Source: a virus (taxonomy: Duplodnaviria > Heunggongvirae > Uroviricota > Caudoviricetes). From it: a DNA stretch of 48,811 nucleotides. The translations under genes were made by a program, and so were the position numbers. Every line of letters begins with the position of its first letter. The first letter of the stretch is position 1. The stretch lies in IMG/VR virus record IMGVR_UViG_2706794677_000013; one strand, given 5' to 3'. This document shows, piece after piece, positions 2,796 through 26,560 of the stretch. The notes below the pieces were generated by a model. It searched no databases. It was given only the letters and a program-made list of their open reading frames with translations, and had not been told where the DNA came from.

Positions 2796-5388
2796 TTGCA
2801 TATTCCTTAGCCCAGCGGGGCAGTGATAACGTCTTAATAGCTGGCCATTCATCGGTATTGAGGCAGTCAGCCAGGGTTCGCAGATTGCGGTGATATTCCA
2901 GCTGACCTGCCAGTTTTGCTTCTTCGCCCATCATGAAAATTTCAACCGGATAACGTCCGCATTCAATAGTTGTGCTGGCAACCAGAAAAACGAAAGTTGG
3001 CTGCACTCCAAACTGTGCTTCATAACCGTCACTGTAGAATGCATCCTGAACGTGATAGCGGTAGTCGTAATAAGCGGTTTTGAATCGTTGAATATCCGCC
3101 GTAGTTTTCACGTCCATGATCCAGTGAAATTCAGGGATAATTTTGTCCGGACGGCACCGACACAAAATTGCTGTTTCAGGATCTTCCCAGTAAATTGATG
3201 ATTCAGCGTGTCCGGCGCTTTCAACAAGCCATTGCCCCAGCGGCAAAGCCATAACGCTCTGATACATGAGTTCAATTTTCCGGCCTTCTTCGGCAGTGAT
3301 AACCGTTTTTCCTGTGCTTGCGCATTCCCTCAGAAACGCTTTCTCTTCTTCTTTTCCGGAGTTTGTCCGGCGGTTAAATTCAGGTGCTACGATAAAGCGG
3401 TTACTGAATTCTTCCGGCTCAAGTACCCGGCAGTGGAAAGCGGTTCCTAAATCGAGCGTTTTTGTCTTTGTGGTGTCCACGGGGGCATTTTTACGCCACA
3501 AATACAGTGCCGGAGTATCAGCAATGTCATCGAGCTGAGACTTACTGACACCGGGACCCGCGTGGTAATTCTCATTCGAAATTCCGTAATAAATACCTGG
3601 CTCTATGTCTTCTACGATTACGGGATCTGCGACTTCGCCAGTTTCATCACTGCAATCGCGATGCGGATCGCTGCCAGCATTCTCATTGTGCGGATGTTCA
3701 GCGCCTTCCATTTCCTCCGGATCATTTTCCTTAGCTTCAACCTGACTCTCTTCATCGAATGTTTCCTGGTATGTTGCGTCGCCCATCACCGCACCACAGT
3801 CAGGGCAGTTATCCCCGCCAGTCTGGCCGCAGGCATTGCAGGCTATTTCCGGTTCCTGTTGCACTACTGGCTCAGGTTGATTCATATCCGGGCTGGTTTT
3901 TTCCGTTTCTGGCTGGTTCTGGTACACACAATCGCGAGTCTGGATCCCCTTTACCCATTTCGGATCGTTCGGGTCGCTAATTCCGTCAACAAATTCACCA
4001 CGTGATGCAGCAAGCAATTTATCGGCATCGACAGGATTTTTTGATGGAATGTTTTTCCGGGCTTCATGGAGTTCTGCCCGCAGTTCCTGATATTTCGCAT
4101 CAACAGAATTTACCTGTGACTGAGCATCCAGCGGCTGCGTGTCCTGATGATGTTCAGTTGCGTCCGGTTCCATTGTTTCAGCCTCTCCCTGTTCAACTGC
4201 CGTTGTTCCAGATGGTTGCGGTTTTTCTTCATCATCCTGTTTTCCTTCTTCTGTTACTCGCTGCGGCATCGGGGCAGAGGAGCGACCGCAGGCAATATCC
4301 ACGATTTCCGGATCAGGGTTGGCATGATCGGTTTCAGTCAGTACTTTGTTCAGATATTCAGTGACGTGCGCGGGGATGACCTCGATCCCAATTGGTGCTT
4401 CTTTTACGGACGCAACCACGATGGCGCGGGAATAATCCAGCCCGCCAGGCATGGTGATGAATTTGTCGCGGAAAACAGAAAAGGGCGGTTTATTTTCAGC
4501 GATAATTTCCTCAATGCGTTTAGCGTGTGCCGGATGAAGGTTATAGATGTCCAGATCCATTGAACGGGCCAGTACGCCAGTGGCTACGTCCCGCGCCAGT
4601 GACGTCAGATCGTGTACGAAACCTTCGCCGCGATCGGTGAGGTTTCCGCCGCCAGCATTAGCACCGGAAGCCGTGCGAGTGATGTGTGAAACACGATTAC
4701 CCTTCATCCACTCTTTTGTCAGCAGTCCTCGATCGGTGTAGTCAGCGTTCAGGTATGCTTCGAAAAAAGCAGTTATCAGTCCCAGGTTTGAATTACCAGG
4801 ATTAGGGAAAACTTTGTCAGTGTCACGAACCAGTTTGTGGAGTTCGCGAATTTCCAGCGGGTCGAGCAGGCTGGTTTTGTGGGAAACAGCCAGGGCAGTA
4901 ACAGCCGGTAGTTCTTCAGCCCGAGCAATGTGTAATGCCTGGAGTCCGTCGCGTGAAACGTGCGTTACCGGTTTTTCGCTGCCGTGTTGAGCAAGCCAAC
5001 GAATGGGCAGTTCCTGGCCAGAAATTGGGAGTAGCATATTCTCCTCAATCTCAGTCATGTCTTCGCCGTTGACGTTGGTATTGCCTTGATAGTGAGCGTT
5101 GTCTGGTGCTGCTCCCGGTTTTAGTTCCCATGTCATGGAGTCTTTGCTGAGTTGATAGCGTTCACTCCAGGTAAAATCGATCTCACCTTCAGCGGGCAGG
5201 TCATTAACGACAGGAAAATTCGTGGCAACAGCTTTAAAATAGCTGCTCAGTTTTTTACCTGACTTAACGATCAGGTAGTCCAGAGTGGCACAGGTCGATT
5301 CAAAATCGTTGCTTGCCCACAGGACGACGTCAGGTTCACCGGATGATTTTTTCGCTTTCCGTAACAGGAAGAGTGGTTTTGTGCTCAT
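2788..5388 (-). CDS. recE: RecE exonuclease VIII, 866 aa
   Basis: 866-aa ORF with acidic/Cys-rich central region and C-terminal nuclease domain, immediately upstream of recT on the same strand (recET operon arrangement). Confidence 0.88.
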
Positions 5389-13262: not shown

Positions 13263-13489
13263 TTTTATGGGGCACCTTTCTGATTGATTTCATATTGGCG
13301 AGGTAAGTAGAATGACTGCGGGTGCTTGAGGCTATCTGCTTCAGGCATGAACACCAAAAGGCAGATAGAGAAAAGCCCCAGTTAACATTACGCGTCCGGC
13401 AAGACGCTTAACATTAATCTGAGGCCAATTTCATGCTTTGCACATGTAGGTTAGCCTCTTACATGCCGAAAGGCAAGGAGAAGCAGGCT

Positions 13490-13645
13490 ATGAAGCAGCA
13501 AAAGGCGATGTTAATCGCCCTGATCGTCATCTGTTTAACCGTCATAGTGACGGCACTGGTAACGAGGAAAGACCTCTGTGAGGTACGAATCCGAACCGGC
13601 CAGACGGAGGTCGCTGTCTTCGTAGACTACGAATCCAGGAAGTAA
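13490..13645 (+). CDS. hok: Hok/Gef-family membrane toxin, 51 aa (HokD/RelF-like); the longer in-frame ORF from 13433 may be a mok-like leader
   Basis: MKQQKAMLIALIVICLTVIVTALVTRKDLCEVRIRTGQTEVAVF... is a textbook Hok-family sequence; structured leader with stem ctatctgc/gcagatag upstream. Confidence 0.85.
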   Translation: MKQQKAMLIALIVICLTVIVTALVTRKDLCEVRIRTGQTEVAVFVDYESRK

Positions 13646-20087: not shown

Positions 20088-20687
20088 ATGGCGCATATAC
20101 AACTGGTCAAACAAACCTCTTCTGGTTTACTTCTCCCGGCGACGCCGGAGAGTTGCGATTTTCTGCATCAAATCAAAATAGGTGAGTGGATACACGCAGA
20201 CTTTAAGCGTGTGCGTAACTACGCATTCCACAAGCGTTTTTTCAAACTCCTGCAACTGGGATTCGATTACTGGACTCCGGTCGGTGGGGCGATCACGCCT
20301 CGCGAACGAGAACTGCTGTCTGGTTTCGTTGATTACCTGTGCGAATCAGTTGGTCGGGAACACACGCCAGCCCTGAGTGATGCCGCAGAGCAATACCTTA
20401 ACACCGTTGCGACTCGTAGAACCCGGGATACGGCGTTGCTAAAGTCGTTTGAGGCTTTCCGCGAGTGGGTAACCATTCAGGCCGGATTTTACACCGAGCA
20501 TATTTATCCGGACGGTAGCCGTGGGCGTCGGGCAAAATCCATCGCTTTTGCGAATATGGACGAAGTCGAGTTTCAGCAGGTTTATAAATCTGTACTGAAT
20601 GTGCTGTGGAACTGGATTCTGTTCCGTAAATTCTCCTCTCAGGAGGAAGTTGAAAATGTGGCCGCACAACTACTGGAGTTTGCGTAA
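20088..20687 (+). CDS. DUF1367-like nin-region protein, 199 aa, complete copy
   Basis: Complete ORF directly upstream of the DUF1364-like and Q-like genes. Confidence 0.6.
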   Translation: MAHIQLVKQTSSGLLLPATPESCDFLHQIKIGEWIHADFKRVRNYAFHKRFFKLLQLGFDYWTPVGGAITPRERELLSGFVDYLCESVGREHTPALSDAAEQYLNTVATRRTRDTALLKSFEAFREWVTIQAGFYTEHIYPDGSRGRRAKSIAFANMDEVEFQQVYKSVLNVLWNWILFRKFSSQEEVENVAAQLLEFA

Positions 20688-20977
20688 TGGTGAATTTACG
20701 TAAAGCGGCTAAAGGCCAGATGTGCCAGATCAGAATCCCTGGCTACTGCAATCACAATCCCGAAACCTCTGTGCTGGCGCATTACAGGCTGGCGGGGACG
20801 TGCGGAACAGCGACAAAACCACATGATATGCAGGCGGCGATAGCCTGTAGCTCATGCCACGATCTAATCGACGGGCGGGTAAAAACCAGCGATTACACCA
20901 AAGAAGAATTGCGCCTGATGCATGCTGAAGGGGTTTTTCGCACACAAGAAATCTGGAGAAAGAAAGGTCATTTATGA
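20687..20977 (+). CDS. DUF1364-like (YbcO-like) Cys-rich nin-region protein, 96 aa
   Basis: Cys pairs CQIRIPGYC and CSSCHDLIDGR; overlapping start/stop with neighbours. Confidence 0.5.
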   Translation: MVNLRKAAKGQMCQIRIPGYCNHNPETSVLAHYRLAGTCGTATKPHDMQAAIACSSCHDLIDGRVKTSDYTKEELRLMHAEGVFRTQEIWRKKGHL

Positions 20978-21516
20978 TTTACCCAACGAATACAGGAAAA
21001 AGCGGAGAACACCTTCGCCTCACCACGCTGGAAAGTGTCTGGATTCAGGGAAAACTACGTATGTGGGGGCGCTGGTCGTATATTGGCGGTGGCAGGTCAG
21101 GGAATATGTTCAATCAGTTGTTGGCATCCAAAAAACTGACGAAAACAGCCATTAATGAAGCCCTGCGCAGAATGAAAAAAGCGGGAATAGAGAAAGCTGA
21201 GCTGGAAGCGTTTTTGCGAGAGATGATCAACGGCAAGCAAAAGAGCTGGCTGGCGCATTGTACTGATGCAGAGGCGTTATGTATTGATCGAGTCATAAGT
21301 GAGGTGCTGGCAGAGCATCCAGGATTGATTTGCATTCTCCGGCAACGCTATGAAGGGCGGGGGATGACTAAGCGCAAAATGGCTGAATTGCTAAATGATG
21401 CACACCCAGAGTGGTGTTTTAGCACATGCGAAAAACGGATTGCTAATTGGTTAGCTGTTGCTGAGTATGCCCTATATATTCCCATGCGTGAATCATTTGC
21501 TGAGAAAATGGCTTGA
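20974..21516 (+). CDS. Late-gene regulator in the Q position (antiterminator Q-like), 180 aa
   Basis: Last gene before a strong intrinsic terminator and the lysis region; C-terminus has a sigma region-4-like/HTH character (RQRYEGRGMTKRKMAELLN); assignment is mainly positional. Confidence 0.55.
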   Translation: MIYPTNTGKSGEHLRLTTLESVWIQGKLRMWGRWSYIGGGRSGNMFNQLLASKKLTKTAINEALRRMKKAGIEKAELEAFLREMINGKQKSWLAHCTDAEALCIDRVISEVLAEHPGLICILRQRYEGRGMTKRKMAELLNDAHPEWCFSTCEKRIANWLAVAEYALYIPMRESFAEKMA

Positions 21517-21596
21517 TTTCTTACGTATAAACTGCTTCAATTTTGCTATGCTTCGCAAAGCTGTATCGCGAGGCGGATTGCAGACATGGACATCGT

Positions 21597-21624
21597 AAAA
21601 AAACCGCTTAATGCGGTTTTTTTA
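21597..21624 (+). terminator. Intrinsic terminator (tR'-like) downstream of the Q-like gene
   Basis: aaaaaaaccgc ttaat gcggttttttt: GC stem, 5-nt loop, 7-T run. Confidence 0.75.
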
Positions 21625-22560
21625 CGTCAGGAAAGCAGGGGAGAATGCTGCTAGTTGGGCAACTGGTCTTTCTGCTCCAAATTATAACAGAGACCAGTTA
21701 TAGTTTCGGTGCTGTGTTTTTTTTACAATATTGTGATAACACATTGCTGGCGGGAGTTTTGATATTTCTTGGCAGGGGCTGATGATGCGTTATCCTGATG
21801 TCGTCAACTCATATAAAATGAGATGAGAGATCATTGCAGGGTGGTTTGTAATTCGCTGTTTAGCGGGACAATATGTTGTCTGATACAAGACACCCGACGC
21901 CTCAGATTACTATAATAAAGACGAAGCATCCTTTGTATTGACCAACCGCCTGTTTAGGCGGTTCTTTTTGGGCTGGTTTATTGTATGCCAAATGATTATT
22001 AAAAAGGTTGTGTTAATAACAAGATCCGAAATAATATGCCTGCATATTTTTATCTTGCTTATATTCTGCATATTGTGCATAGCAGGCTCATCCCTGCAAT
22101 CAAAACTGTATGATGAGTATTTTTTGTTTTCCTTTTTTCCAGTCATCTGATGATGACCTGCTTCTTTTTAATCCGGATCGACATCAGTTTTTTAAGATAA
22201 TTCCTGCGAGTTATATGCATAAATGCCACAAACTCCGCATTTTATGTGGTTGGGAGTTGCCGGGCGCGCAGTGAGTTTGCTAAGAAAACTCCTGCATGGT
22301 GAATCCCCCTGTGCGGTGGGGTGATACCATTAACCTTTTCTGTCGCCGACAGGTATCACGAACATTTTGTTCACCGGGAGGCACCCGGCACCATGCACTT
22401 CAATAGATTCTCTCCACATTATGGATATTCTTTCAGAATATCCCACGCAGACTTTGTGTAAATGTTAACAAATGTGCGTTTTATTTGATCTGATTCGCTG
22501 TTTGAGCGTCCAAAACAACGGTATATATAATCCTTTACTATATGACATATGTGAGGAAAA

Positions 22561-22989
22561 ATGGGTTTTCGTAGCGCATCAATTCTTACGTTGATTATTA
22601 GTGGGATTATTATCGGGTGCACTGATGCTGTATCGACAAATTATCATGACCGTACATCATATTACTCCGATAAAGCAATAGAGACACAGTATGTGAGTTC
22701 ATCTGAACGTACTTCTGATGTTAGTGAGGATATCCGTCTGTATGCCCATCAAATCAAGAGCGCCATCGAAAAACAGTTCGGGGATGCGAGTAAGTATTCA
22801 GGAAAAGAGTGTACACTGAGAATGCATATGGCCCCGAATGGCCTTCTACTGGAGGTTAAAAGAGAAAGTGGAGACCTCGATTTATGTCGTGAAGCGATGA
22901 ATGCGATAAAGAATGCTGATATACCTGCCCCCCCTTCGCCGGAAGTATATAAAGTATTTCAAAATGGGGTGCTGGATTTTAAACCCTGA
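22561..22989 (+). CDS. Lipoprotein with TolA domain-III-like C-terminus, 142 aa
   Basis: Signal peptide with lipobox IIGC; C-terminal 85 aa (YAHQIKSAIEKQFGDASKYSGKECTLRMHMAPNGLLLEVK...PEVYKVFQNGVLDFKP) closely resembles the E. coli TolA C-terminal domain as I recall it. Confidence 0.7.
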   Translation: MGFRSASILTLIISGIIIGCTDAVSTNYHDRTSYYSDKAIETQYVSSSERTSDVSEDIRLYAHQIKSAIEKQFGDASKYSGKECTLRMHMAPNGLLLEVKRESGDLDLCREAMNAIKNADIPAPPSPEVYKVFQNGVLDFKP

Positions 22990-23139: not shown

Positions 23140-23535
23140 GTGGGATTAAAGAAAATCGTTATGTTGACTTTTTGGGTCGGTTTTGTTGCGGGATGCACAC
23201 CTTTACACCCTTCAGATTGCCACAAAACTACTGCTACAGGTAGTTGCAGTTCAGGACGCTGGGATGATCAGGATGAATGGGGGGCGCAAGCGCGGGGAAT
23301 CAGAGCTGCAATTAATGCCAAACTTGATGAGCCGCATAACTGGAAAGGGAAAAAATGCAGGTTGCATATGGAATTCTCTCAGGATGGCACGGCGTTAAAA
23401 ATATCTACCAGTAACGGTGATAAAGCCTATTGCGAAGCGATAAAGTCCGCAGCTCATAAAGCCAAATTTCCGGCCTTCAACAATCCGGAAGTCTACAGAG
23501 ATTTTCAGAAATCTGGCTTTGACATGCGAGGTTAG
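23140..23535 (+). CDS. Second lipoprotein, diverged TolA domain-III-like paralog, 131 aa
   Basis: Lipobox VAGC; shares the C..L.M....G.LL / C.EA...A....P.....PEVY..FQ pattern with the preceding gene. Confidence 0.6.
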   Translation: MGLKKIVMLTFWVGFVAGCTPLHPSDCHKTTATGSCSSGRWDDQDEWGAQARGIRAAINAKLDEPHNWKGKKCRLHMEFSQDGTALKISTSNGDKAYCEAIKSAAHKAKFPAFNNPEVYRDFQKSGFDMRG

Positions 23536-23786
23536 CTCTTCAATTACTATATCTCATTCATAGCAAACTGACAGATTTGATGATGTTCTATATACGAAAC
23601 CTGTGATGTCAAGTCTGAGCTAATACAAATAAACATAATATCAGAGAAATACATTTTATTAGCTCGCTACGGCGAGCTTTTTATATTGCATCGTCTCCAG
23701 CATATATATCAATTAAGGCTCTGATTGATGTGTCTGAAAGCCTACACATAATAACTATGCCATCCGTTCCGTGCGGAGGTGAGGCT

Positions 23787-24002: not shown

Positions 24003-24490
24003 TGCCTCCATCATTACGAAAAGTCGTTGCTGCTGCTATTGGTGGCGGAGCAATTGCTATAGCATCAGTGTTAATCACTGGCCCAAGTGGTAACGATGGT
24101 CTGGAAGGTGTCAGCTACATACCATACAAAGATATTGTTGGTGTATGGACTGTATGTCACGGGCATACAGGAAAAGACATCATGCTCGGTAAAACGTATA
24201 CCGAAGCAGAATGCAAAGCCCTCCTGAATAAAGACCTTGCCACTGTCGCCAGACAAATTAACCCGTACATCAAAGTCGATATACCGGAAACAACGCGCGG
24301 CGCTCTTTACTCATTCGTTTACAACGTGGGTGCTGGCAATTTCAGAACATCGACGCTTCTTCGCAAAATAAACCAGGGCGATATCAAAGGCGCATGTGAT
24401 CAGCTACGTCGCTGGACATATGCTGGCGGTAAGCAATGGAAAGGNCGTCGTGAGATTGAGCGTGAAATCTGTTTGTGGGGTCAGCAATGA
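24002..24490 (+). CDS. SAR endolysin (phage-21 R-type lysozyme), 162 aa; contains one N at 24445
   Basis: N-terminal Gly/Ala-rich signal-anchor-release segment ([20 protein letters not shown]) followed by a lysozyme-like domain. Confidence 0.8.
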
Positions 24491-24932
24491 ACAGAGTAAC
24501 CGCGATTATCTCCGCTCTGGTTATCTGCATCATCGTCTGCCTGTCATGGGCTGTTAATCATTACCGTGATAACGCCATTACCTACAAAGCCCAGCGCGAC
24601 AAAAATGCCAGAGAACTGAAGCTGGCGAACGCGGCAATTACTGACATGCAGATGCGTCAGCGTGATGTTGCTGCGCTCGATGCAAAATACACGAAGGAGT
24701 TAGCTGATGCGAAAGCTGAAAATGATGCTCTGCGTGATGATGTTGCCGCTGGTCGTCGTCGGTTGCACATCAAAGCAGTCTGTCAGTCAGTGCGTGAAGC
24801 CACCACCGCCTCCGGCGTGGATAATGCAGCCTCCCCCCGACTGGCAGACACCGCTGAACGGGATTATTTCACCCTCCGGGAACGACTGGTAATGATGCAG
24901 GCCCAACTTGAAGGTGCTCAGCAATACATAAC
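24487..24932 (+). CDS. Rz i-spanin, 3' end lost in N run
   Basis: N-terminal transmembrane segment then coiled-coil; ATGA overlap with the endolysin stop; embedded Rz1. Confidence 0.75.
24707..24892 (+). CDS. Rz1 o-spanin lipoprotein embedded in Rz (+1 frame), 61 aa
   Basis: Lipobox VVGC followed by a proline-rich segment ([15 protein letters not shown]), entirely inside Rz. Confidence 0.75.
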
Positions 24933-25199
24933 NNNNNNNNNNNNNNNNNNNNNNNNNNNNNNNNNNNNNNNNNNNNNNNNNNNNNNNNNNNNNNNNNNNN
25001 NNNNNNNNNNNNNNNNNNNNNNNNNNNNNNNNNNNNNNNNNNNNNNNNNNNNNNNNNNNNNNNNNNNNNNNNNNNNNNNNNNNNNNNNNNNNNNNNNNNN
25101 NNNNNNNNNNNNNNNNNNNNNNNNNNNNNNNNNNNNNNNNNNNNNNNNNNNNNNNNNNNNNNNNNNNNNNNNNNNNNNNNNNNNNNNNNNNNNNNNNNN
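24933..25199. other. Run of 267 N covering the Rz 3' end and the trkG 5' end
   Basis: Literal n characters. Confidence 1.
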
Positions 25200-26560
25200 T
25201 TTATAAAGAAAAAAGCCTGTTCGTTTTCTTTATAACTTTCGTTATATTTTTTTGCATTGGTGGCGGAGCGTGGTATACAACTAAGAAATCTGGCATTCAA
25301 TTACGTACCCGTGATGGGTTTATTATAATTGTAATGTTTTGGATTTTGTTTTCTGTTATTAGTGCATTCCCTTTATGGATTGACTCAGAACTTAATTTAA
25401 CGTTCATTGATGCTCTGTTTGAAGGGGTTTCTGGAATAACAACAACAGGAGCAACTGTAATTGATGATGTTAGTTCATTACCTCGGGCATATTTGTACTA
25501 TCGGTCACAGTTAAATTTTATAGGTGGTTTAGGAGTTATTGTTCTGGCGGTTGCAGTATTGCCATTATTGGGTATTGGTGGTGCAAAGCTTTATCAGTCA
25601 GAAATGCCGGGGCCATTTAAGGATGACAAACTCACTCCCCGCCTGGCCGATACGTCACGGACACTGTGGATAACTTATTCTTTATTAGGTATTGCTTGTA
25701 TTGTCTGTTATAGACTTGCAGGAATGCCTTTGTTTGATGCTATTTGTCACGGGATTTCCACAGTTTCGCTTGGTGGTTTCTCAACTCATAGCGAGAGTAT
25801 CGGATATTTTAATAACTATTTGGTTGAGCTGGTGGCTGGTTCTTTTTCCCTGCTATCGGCTTTCAACTTCACTCTTTGGTATATTGTTATTAGCAGAAAA
25901 ACGATAAAACCTTTAATCAGAGATATTGAACTTCGTTTCTTTCTGTTAATAGCCTTAGGGGTGATCATTGTTACCTCTTTCCAGGTCTGGCATATAGGTA
26001 TGTATGACTTGCATGGAAGTTTTATTCATTCGTTTTTTCTTGCCAGCTCCATGCTCACTGATAATGGTTTAGCTACGCAGGATTATGCAAACTGGCCCAC
26101 GCACACGATAGTGTTTTTGCTGTTGTCAAGTTTCTTTGGGGGATGTATAGGTTCAACCTGTGGTGGAATTAAGTCACTTCGATTTCTTATACTTTTCAAA
26201 CAAAGCAAACACGAGATAAATCAGCTTTCTCATCCCAGAGCGTTGTTGAGTGTAAATGTAGGAGGGAAGATAGTTACAGATCGTGTAATGAGGTCTGTAT
26301 GGAGTTTCTTTTTTCTTTATACTCTCTTCACGGTGTTTTTTATACTGGTGTTAAATGGTATGGGATATGATTTTCTTACATCATTTGCAACAGTGGCTGC
26401 ATGTATTAATAATATGGGATTAGGTTTTGGGGCTACTGCATCGTCATTCGGAGTGCTTAATGACATTGCAAAATATTTAATGTGCATAGCTATGATTCTT
26501 GGTCGCCTTGAAATTTATCCTGTTATTATATTGTTTTCAGGTTTTTTTTGGCGCTCCTAA
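25200..26560 (+). CDS. trkG: TrkG/TrkH-family potassium uptake membrane protein, 5' roughly 30 codons lost in N run
   Basis: Polytopic membrane protein; open frame from the gap edge; sequence recalled as Rac TrkG; AT-rich. Confidence 0.8.

Follow-up and report, generated by a model that had tools for sequence, protein, structure and literature searches.

How are the late genes of this prophage switched on, and what kind of protein operates the switch? The window, a stretch of 48,811 nucleotides of DNA from a virus of the Caudoviricetes (IMG/VR record IMGVR_UViG_2706794677_000013), carries a gene for a 180-aa protein that the original prediction had described as a late regulator in the Q position, followed by a strong intrinsic terminator. 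The feature serves as the late-gene switch in an E. coli lambdoid prophage of the Rac type. The protein, from the DUF1133 branch of the Q21 superfamily, is probably a processive antiterminator of the Q type, with positions 21513..21626 as its cis-acting cassette.

Gene order around the Q-like gene

The Q-like gene was found between genes of the nin region and a lysis cassette, in the following order:

20088..20687: NinB-like DUF1367 gene, upstream of the Q-like gene
20687..20977: YbcO-type nuclease gene, immediately upstream of the Q-like gene
20974..21516, + strand: gene for a 180-aa Q-like late antiterminator; its family, Pfam DUF1133 (PF06576), forms a distant branch within Q21/PF06530
23787..24002, + strand: S21-type pinholin gene, 90% identical to phage 21 S21-71
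from 24002: phage-lysozyme-family gene, next after the holin gene
behind the phage-lysozyme-family gene: Rz-position ORF

With NinB-like and YbcO-type genes upstream and the holin, lysozyme and Rz-position reading frames downstream, the 180-aa reading frame occupies the Q position of a lambdoid prophage, as had been proposed. Its ATG overlaps the stop codon of the YbcO-type gene (ATGA). The holin gene, approximately 2.2 kb downstream, is the first late gene expected to depend on read-through, and its similarity to S21 bears out the phage-21-type lysis cassette suggested earlier. The late genes are all co-oriented with the Q-like gene and run to the end of the window, including approximately 27 kb of head and tail genes.

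We call the element Rac-type on two grounds. First, trkG adjoins the lysis genes in an E. coli chromosome whose copy of the region is 99.9% identical. Second, the GenBank record 'Escherichia phage Rac' contains an 83%-identical stretch with the same three genes annotated, the last of which is named 'Q; prophage antiterminator; DUF1133 family protein'. A literature search for a mapped start site or a study of Q in Rac-type prophages returned nothing usable. Within 20974..21516, we found no TTGYN6TTGY motif that would point to a CII-dependent antisense promoter like paQ of lambda and phage 21; the total number of such motifs across the window was at chance level.

Homology and fold similarity to the phage 21 Q protein

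Searches against Pfam assigned the protein to DUF1133 (PF06576) along nearly the entire model (E 2.5e-107; 356.4 bits against a gathering cut-off of 23.1; positions 1-175 of 176). The model PF06530 (Phage_antitermQ, the Q21/Q933W family) scored 26.1 bits, right at its cut-off of 26, and the PHROGs assignment of the protein is PHROG 753, 'anti-termination protein Q-like'. Consistent with the earlier view that the protein is unlike lambda Q, the models for lambda Q (PF03589) and Q82 (PF06323) gave no match at E <= 1. Q21, lambda Q and Q82 constitute separate families (bioRxiv 10.1101/651190). With lambda Q and Q82, the window protein has the genome position in common and would also share the regulatory role and the logic of loading at a sigma-dependent, promoter-proximal pause, but it has no sequence similarity to them.

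Q21 itself served as the reference (PDB 6P18, 6P19, 6P1A-C, 6JNX and 6JNY; Pfam PF06530; pR'21 with its Q-binding element (QBE), sigma-dependent pause element (SDPE) and tR'). With the single sequence as query, a PDB search gave a weak but collinear match to Q21 (E 0.27), and a search of 1.84 billion representatives returned 69 matches, few of them full length, without reaching Q21. Profiles were therefore needed. When family profiles built from 18 and from 45 members were searched against the PDB, phage 21 Q was the only real match (E 7e-9 and 1.6e-9), covering the N-terminal helix (about residues 15-52) and residues 95-181. Alignment of the DUF1133 family with a 20-member alignment of the Q21 family by hhalign gave 98.4% probability (E 8e-15, 135 columns). 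The comparison with known Q proteins that had been proposed as a check on the gene thus singled out Q21. The databases already overlap at this point: relatives of Q21 that are 81-85% identical to it carry precomputed PF06576 matches, and NCBI calls some of them 'DUF1133 family protein'.

Structure prediction agreed with the profile searches. The AlphaFold2 model had a mean pLDDT of 73.8, with about 90 in the C-terminal half (residues 98-180) and a low-confidence middle third (residues 39-93), in which residues 39-55 and 87-93 fell below 50. In a Foldseek search of this model against the PDB, the best 12 matches were all Q21 (probability 1.00, E 7.5e-5 to 1e-2, TM 0.66-0.75 on the target), and the 13th match had an E value of 0.68. 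The protein is hence homologous to Q21 (about 17-21% identity), both in the N-terminal helix and throughout the C-terminal helix-turn[loop]-helix domain, and alike in predicted fold; gene position and the S21-type lysis cassette are likewise in common. This places the suggested Q21-type antiterminator on firmer ground as far as family and fold are concerned. In other respects the protein belongs to a divergent DUF1133 branch, which does without the Q21 loop and, in the window, without a repeated binding site of the Q21 type.

The divergence within the protein concerns two regions. Compared with Q21, DUF1133 proteins are longer by about 30-38 residues in the segment that leads from the N-terminal helix to a conserved C-T-D motif, and three short helices are predicted there with low confidence. 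Furthermore, all DUF1133 members show a 13-residue gap in the helix-turn[loop]-helix loop, and nothing in them corresponds to the Q21 loop residues RPRKMLCRGGGRI. The Q21 loop makes contact with the minor groove of the DNA and with the adjacent protomer (10.1101/651190).

The C-terminus had originally been likened to sigma-70 region 4 or a LuxR-type domain. Directly, this likeness did not hold, as the models Sigma70_r4, Sigma70_r4_2, Sigma70_r2 and GerE (LuxR) gave no match at E <= 1 and the significant Foldseek matches included no sigma factor (best sigma-containing entry E 3.8). It survives in an indirect form: residues 95-180 can be aligned to the portion of Q21 that contains the helix-turn[loop]-helix, and the fold of Q21 is described as related to ECF sigma region 4 (10.1101/651190). 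Starting from this relationship, one could regard the protein as a sigma-region-4/LuxR-like activator, or an alternative sigma-like factor, of the late promoter instead of an antiterminator, and the poor -10 element of the putative late promoter (see below) could indeed need help. We consider such a role highly improbable. The similarity to Q21 extends over the N-terminal helix as well as the C-terminal domain, no sigma or LuxR model is matched, and the significant fold matches are limited to Q21. Moreover, nearly all related loci have a terminator right behind the promoter, which suits antitermination and not plain activation. We therefore retain the reading of the protein as an antiterminator.

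Layout of the putative promoter, pause element and terminator behind the gene

Directly behind the gene we found a promoter-like sequence, a TAnGCT element and an intrinsic terminator, with two further hairpins before the lysis genes:

21513..21518, + strand: -35 hexamer TTGATT of the presumed pR', containing the stop codon TGA of the Q-like gene
21519..21535, + strand: 17-nt spacer TCTTACGTATAAACTGC, a candidate Q-binding element by its position
21533..21541, + strand: extended -10-like element TGcTTCAAT, with the weak hexamer TTCAAT at 21536-41, which lacks an A at -11
21547..21552, + strand: TATGCT, the presumed SDPE, at about -1..+5 of the late transcript
21553..21575, + strand: conserved initial transcribed region TCGCAAAGCTGTATCGCGAGGCG
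21594..21626, + strand: tR'-like intrinsic terminator with a 14-bp stem, a 5-nt loop and a U7 tract within the 3' arm
21944..21970, + strand: second terminator-like hairpin with an 8-bp stem (5 GC), a weak fold (z -2.0)
23661..23683, + strand: third terminator-like hairpin with a 7-bp stem (5 GC) and a T run

The 5 nt between TTCAAT and TATGCT are TTTGC. Across the 48.8 kb of the window, the layout TTG-N21-TNAAT-N5-TANGCT has a single occurrence, compared with an expectation of 0.01. A late promoter and a Q-utilisation site had been predicted between gene and terminator, within 21517..21596. The pR'21-like layout agrees with this placement except at its upstream edge: since the TGA stop codon lies in the -35 hexamer TTGATT, the promoter would reach back to 21513 and overlap the last bases of the gene.

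In the phage 21 record (OL657228), pR'21 reads TTGACA, a 17-nt spacer, AACACT, 7 nt and TAAGCT. The spacer holds the annotated Q-binding element ATTGAGCA AATGAGCA, the transcript starts at the A just before TAAGCT, and TAAGCT is annotated as the sigma-dependent pause element. A similar arrangement, TTGACA-17/18-(-10)-7-TA[AT]GCT followed by a terminator, is present in a P22-like phage, Hafnia phage yong1 and Providencia phage PSTCR7lys, whose Q proteins are of the Q21 family proper (60-85% identical to Q21). The window and phage 21 therefore share the promoter plan of -35, 17-nt spacer, -10, TAnGCT and terminator. As the QBE of phage 21 sits in the corresponding spacer, we regard the spacer in the window as the candidate Q-binding element.

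Within this shared plan, several details differ. The QBE in the pR'21 spacer is a tandem pair of 8-bp direct repeats, (A/T)TGAGCA, and 8-bp tandem spacer repeats are also present in yong1 and PSTCR7lys (ATTGAACA AATGAGCA; AATGGCCA AATGGACA), whereas the window has none. No (A/T)TGAGCA site with up to 2 mismatches was found on either strand of 21495..21580; the only repeat in this interval is (C/A)TGCTTC with a 16-bp period. The -10 of the window is of the extended type (TGnTTSAAT) and lacks an A at -11, unlike that of phage 21. The gap between the -10 and TAnGCT is 5 nt instead of the 7 nt of phage 21 (11 versus 13 nt from start to start), and the predicted terminated transcript is about 77-80 nt long compared with about 45 nt for phage 21. 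In the layout of lambda, the pause element is likewise 2 bp farther from the -10 than in the window.

With a -10 that has no A at -11 and a pause element shifted 2 bp towards it, the start site could differ from the one assumed here. This leads to another reading of the same bases, which leaves the function of the protein unchanged: TGcTATGCT (21544..21552) would be the real extended -10, transcription would start near 21559, a pause element would lie farther downstream (e.g., TATCGC at 21564..21569), and the terminated RNA would measure about 66 nt. Judged by the consensus for an extended -10 (TG, T at -7, A at -11), TGnTAnGCT is indeed a closer fit than TTCAAT, the upstream hexamer without an A at -11. 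However, the TG is not conserved, as more than 15 near-identical loci show TCCGG-TATGCT and other classes show CAGA-TAAGCT or CATA-TAAGCT in its place, and there is no -35 at 17 nt from TGcTATGCT. The downstream pause candidates TATCGC, TAAAGC and TACACC have no final T and no fixed distance. In contrast, TA[AT]GCT is the annotated SDPE of phage 21 and recurs in three other Q21-family phages, and the TTG-17-hexamer arrangement precedes TAnGCT in every layout-matching locus. We therefore judged TGcTATGCT less likely than TTCAAT to be the -10 of the promoter, and consider it unlikely overall. Instead, we read TATGCT as a putative pause element, based on the annotation in phage 21 and on its recurrence.

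Comparison of related loci, gathered with the single 180-aa protein as query, gave further information on the layout. The set comprised 24 genome loci from distinct enterobacterial species (protein identity 52-99%) and 80 viral-contig loci, all of which are at least 94% identical and thus uninformative for deep comparison. A fixed arrangement of TTGnnn, 17 nt, TT[G/C/A]AAT (usually after TGn), 5 nt and TAnGCT was matched behind 21 of the 24 genes in the genome loci and nearly all of the 80 viral-contig copies. In every layout-matching locus, TTG stands 17 nt upstream of TT[GCA]AAT, whether this DNA is coding or non-coding, and TAnGCT varies only in its middle base. The extended form TGnTT[GCA]AAT is kept in nearly all DUF1133 loci; in a class with a 192-aa protein, the stop codon of the Q gene lies within the TT[G/A]AAT hexamer. 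Nearly all related loci have a GC hairpin with a T run approximately 40-110 nt past the promoter.

Conservation is unevenly distributed along the cassette. In the group of the window, the spacer is conserved even though it is non-coding (T[CT]TTACG[TC]ATAAACTGC). Q genes that are at least 94% identical are followed by an unchanged promoter and an unchanged start of the transcript (first ~30 nt, TCGCAAAGCTGTATCGCGAGGCG), whereas what comes after, the remaining leader with the terminator, exists in five or more unrelated versions. Such a pattern would be expected if the factor recognised its loading site but did not discriminate between terminators. Exchange between Q classes is also seen for initial transcribed regions (loci L015 and L018), and the initial region of the window is also found behind a Q gene of a different class (L015); the spacer, in contrast, stays with the protein class. 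The Q classes differ in the recognition helix residues after 'TC' (EKR, RRR or E[STN]R), so the co-variation of spacer class and helix class would be consistent with a spacer-located binding site like that of Q21. We did not retain it as evidence for such a site, because physical linkage explains it equally well: both elements lie within about 100 bp, and the spacer is coding in some classes.

The strong terminator that had been noted about 80 nt downstream of the gene was confirmed in form. The hairpin at 21594..21626 begins 77 nt past the stop codon, has a perfect stem (CGUAAAAAAACCGC/GCGGUUUUUUUACG) and folds with a dG of -19.7 kcal/mol (z -8.2; none of 200 shuffled sequences was as good). 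Its opposite strand folds equally well, so that the structure is bidirectional in form. A consensus terminator scan did not list this hairpin, probably because the T run is part of the stem. The hairpins starting at 21944 and 23661 both lie between pR' and the lysis genes, the latter behind two TolA-like accessory genes and just before the holin gene. Together, the homology to Q21, the pR'21-like layout and the terminator suggest a Q gene with its pR', a pause element and tR'.

Short promoter-proximal RNAs of other prophages suggest an alternative view of the leader. Besides or instead of providing the Q loading site, the short transcript (about 21548..21626) could be a trans-acting regulatory RNA, for which the cassette is kept in the prophage, like IsrK of Gifsy-1 or StxS of Stx phages. 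StxS, which is made from pR', is a functional sRNA (PMC7547250). In the window, the isrK model gave a weak full-length match at 21550..21623 (21.6 bits, E 0.039), and the first ~30 transcribed nt are conserved. True isrK copies occur at the corresponding place behind the 184-aa variant of DUF1133 (75.6 and 67.1 bits); over all DUF1133 genes with a true copy, the scores are 67-81 bits. The score in the window is far below the gathering threshold of 50 bits and rests largely on the terminator hairpin, so we rejected membership of 21550..21623 in IsrK (Rfam RF01394). Furthermore, the 3' half of the transcript is freely replaced among near-identical loci. We thus regard a trans-acting RNA as quite improbable here, and continue with the leader as the site at which the antiterminator would load.

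The isrK loci also provide a link to experimental work. In Salmonella enterica (L009) and E. coli (L005), a 184-aa DUF1133 gene is followed by isrK (67.1 and 75.6 bits versus a gathering cut-off of 50) and a C4-like RNA; the Salmonella locus additionally carries an ORF6N antirepressor-like gene after the C4-like RNA. For Gifsy-1, the accessible text of Hershko-Shalev et al. 2016 (PMC4825925) gives the order antQ-isrK-orf45-anrP. AntQ is described there as a Q-like antiterminator that is growth-arresting and toxic and is reported to promote elongation of core-genome transcripts. According to the same text, the toxicity is relieved by Rho and SrmB and is independent of prophage DNA, and no specific loading site is reported in it. 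In the Salmonella locus with the published antQ-type layout, the Q-like gene is 84% identical to that of the window. Judging by this synteny, and not by a published sequence, AntQ appears to belong to the DUF1133 family, of which it is the only member with experimental data. It differs from the window protein in being of the 184-aa variant with another C-terminal tail. Its locus also differs, with a canonical isrK promoter (TTGACT-18-TATATT) that lacks TAnGCT and is followed by an immI-like module.

Proposed mechanism and meaning for DUF1133 proteins

From these observations, we propose the following course of events for the window. Sigma-70 RNA polymerase would use TTGATT (21513-18), the 17-nt spacer and TGcTTCAAT (21533-41) as promoter and initiate at about A21548. 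Renewed binding of sigma region 2, now to the -10-like TATGCT (21547-52), would then make the polymerase pause a few nucleotides beyond. In the absence of the protein, transcription would terminate at 21594..21626 and leave a transcript of about 77-80 nt. If present, the protein would use its helix-turn[loop]-helix to bind the promoter spacer or the DNA beside it, load onto the paused complex and then travel with the polymerase. By analogy with Q21, it may form a nozzle on the RNA-exit channel. The modified polymerase would ignore the terminator at 21594..21626 as well as the hairpins at 21944 and 23661, and read-through would express the S21-type lysis genes together with roughly 27 kb of co-oriented head and tail genes.

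The loading step may follow a different pattern in the DUF1133 branch. Given the deleted loop, the missing tandem repeats and a pause element 2 bp closer to an extended -10 without an A at -11, DUF1133 proteins might load on RNA polymerase differently from Q21, as a single protomer or at a differently organised site (TTACGYATAAACTGC), and the ~78-nt pR' transcript might also act in trans like IsrK and StxS. We put this forward tentatively, as a possibility that we consider doubtful on balance.

The feature is real, but as a regulator it is ordinary and of a kind known before; PHROGs, GenBank annotation and one paper had already made the link between DUF1133 and the Q family. What is new here is the base-level annotation of promoter, pause element and terminator for the DUF1133 branch, together with its departures from Q21. 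Structural studies of Q21 could draw on the natural variation in this branch for comparison, namely its shorter DNA-binding loop, its lack of a tandem binding site and the 2-bp displacement of its pause element.

The region was matched in 1951 of 5426 complete RefSeq E. coli genomes, a count in which not every match is necessarily to the Q-like gene itself. A 'DUF1133 family protein' in RefSeq E. coli genomes can be read as a Q21-superfamily protein for late antitermination, which is of use in predicting which prophages are still able to switch on lysis. It also helps to predict which accessory genes behind pR' are under the control of the Q switch, such as the TolA-like genes and STnc100 in this prophage, and tRNAs or toxins elsewhere.

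Gene ends and the downstream promoter

Coding sequence and promoter overlap in DUF1133 genes of the 192-aa class. At about 3550..3580 of the genome loci with this overlap (L010, L014 and L017-L027), the -35 element and spacer of the downstream promoter also serve as the last nine codons of the gene, and its stop codon (TGA or TAA) forms the centre of the -10-like hexamer TT[G/A]AAT. The window-type gene ends earlier than the 192-aa class, with its stop codon inside the -35 element.

The accessory region from the tR'-like terminator to the lysis genes

The following features were located in this region of the window:

21887..21970 (+), a promoter-like site of good quality (AAGACA-18-TATAAT) followed by a terminator-like hairpin
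22264..22450 (+), STnc100 sRNA gene (Rfam RF02076, 86.6 bits against a gathering score of 47)
22502..22531, promoter-like site of the TolA-like ORF pair
22561..22989 (+), small ORF with a TolA C-terminal domain (PF06519, E 2.4e-23)
23140..23535 (+), small ORF with a TolA C-terminal domain (PF06519, E 1.3e-14)
23661..23683, terminator-like hairpin of the TolA-like ORF pair

In the first of these, the hairpin (21944..21963) and its T run follow the promoter-like site by about 30 nt, and the pair could give rise to a predicted transcript of about 50 nt. An Rfam search of 21887..21970 returned no family match. The STnc100 gene occupies an accessory region with the tR'-like terminator on one side and the lysis genes on the other, and is therefore in the path of late transcription. 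Both PF06519 ORFs are annotated as TolA-like in RefSeq, and they resemble 'morons', accessory genes that have been inserted after Q/pR' and before the holin gene.

RNA elements in related loci and in the early region

The Salmonella locus L009 carries two copies of a pair composed of isrK and a C4-like RNA, which are separated by about 3.3 kb and flank the nin-region and DUF1133 genes, one on each side. The coordinates of these pairs and of an element in the E. coli locus L005 are:

L009, 290..476 and 3588..3768, isrK + C4-like RNA pairs
L005, 3575..3776, a1/b1 C4-target element overlapping isrK

The arrangement resembles an immI-type module of P1/P7 located at the expected position of pR'. 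In the window, a sok antitoxin RNA was detected:

13320..13495 (+), sok (Rfam RF01794, 117 bits)

This places a hok/sok module in the early region. Several related loci likewise carry the element upstream of their DUF1133 gene.

Sequence quality and other copies of the prophage

Translations of the lysozyme-family gene and the Rz-position ORF (about 24400..25200) both contain X residues, with a long run in the latter, and the window must therefore hold N or masked bases there. Residues 1-149 of the E. coli prophage DUF1133 protein were also recovered at 100% identity from a 5.2-kb contig (JARKOR010000130.1) assigned to a 'Candidatus Nanosynbacter' metagenome-assembled genome, where this contig is most likely a binning contaminant.

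In E. coli LD39-1 (L001, 7103..8936), an IS2 element splits the endolysin gene rrrD; the prophage region is otherwise a 99.9% identical copy of that in the window. Other genomes have IS1 or IS5 insertions within the stretch queried, which runs from the end of the YbcO-type gene through the DUF1133 gene to about 1 kb beyond it. Together, these insertions indicate that many copies of the prophage are defective.
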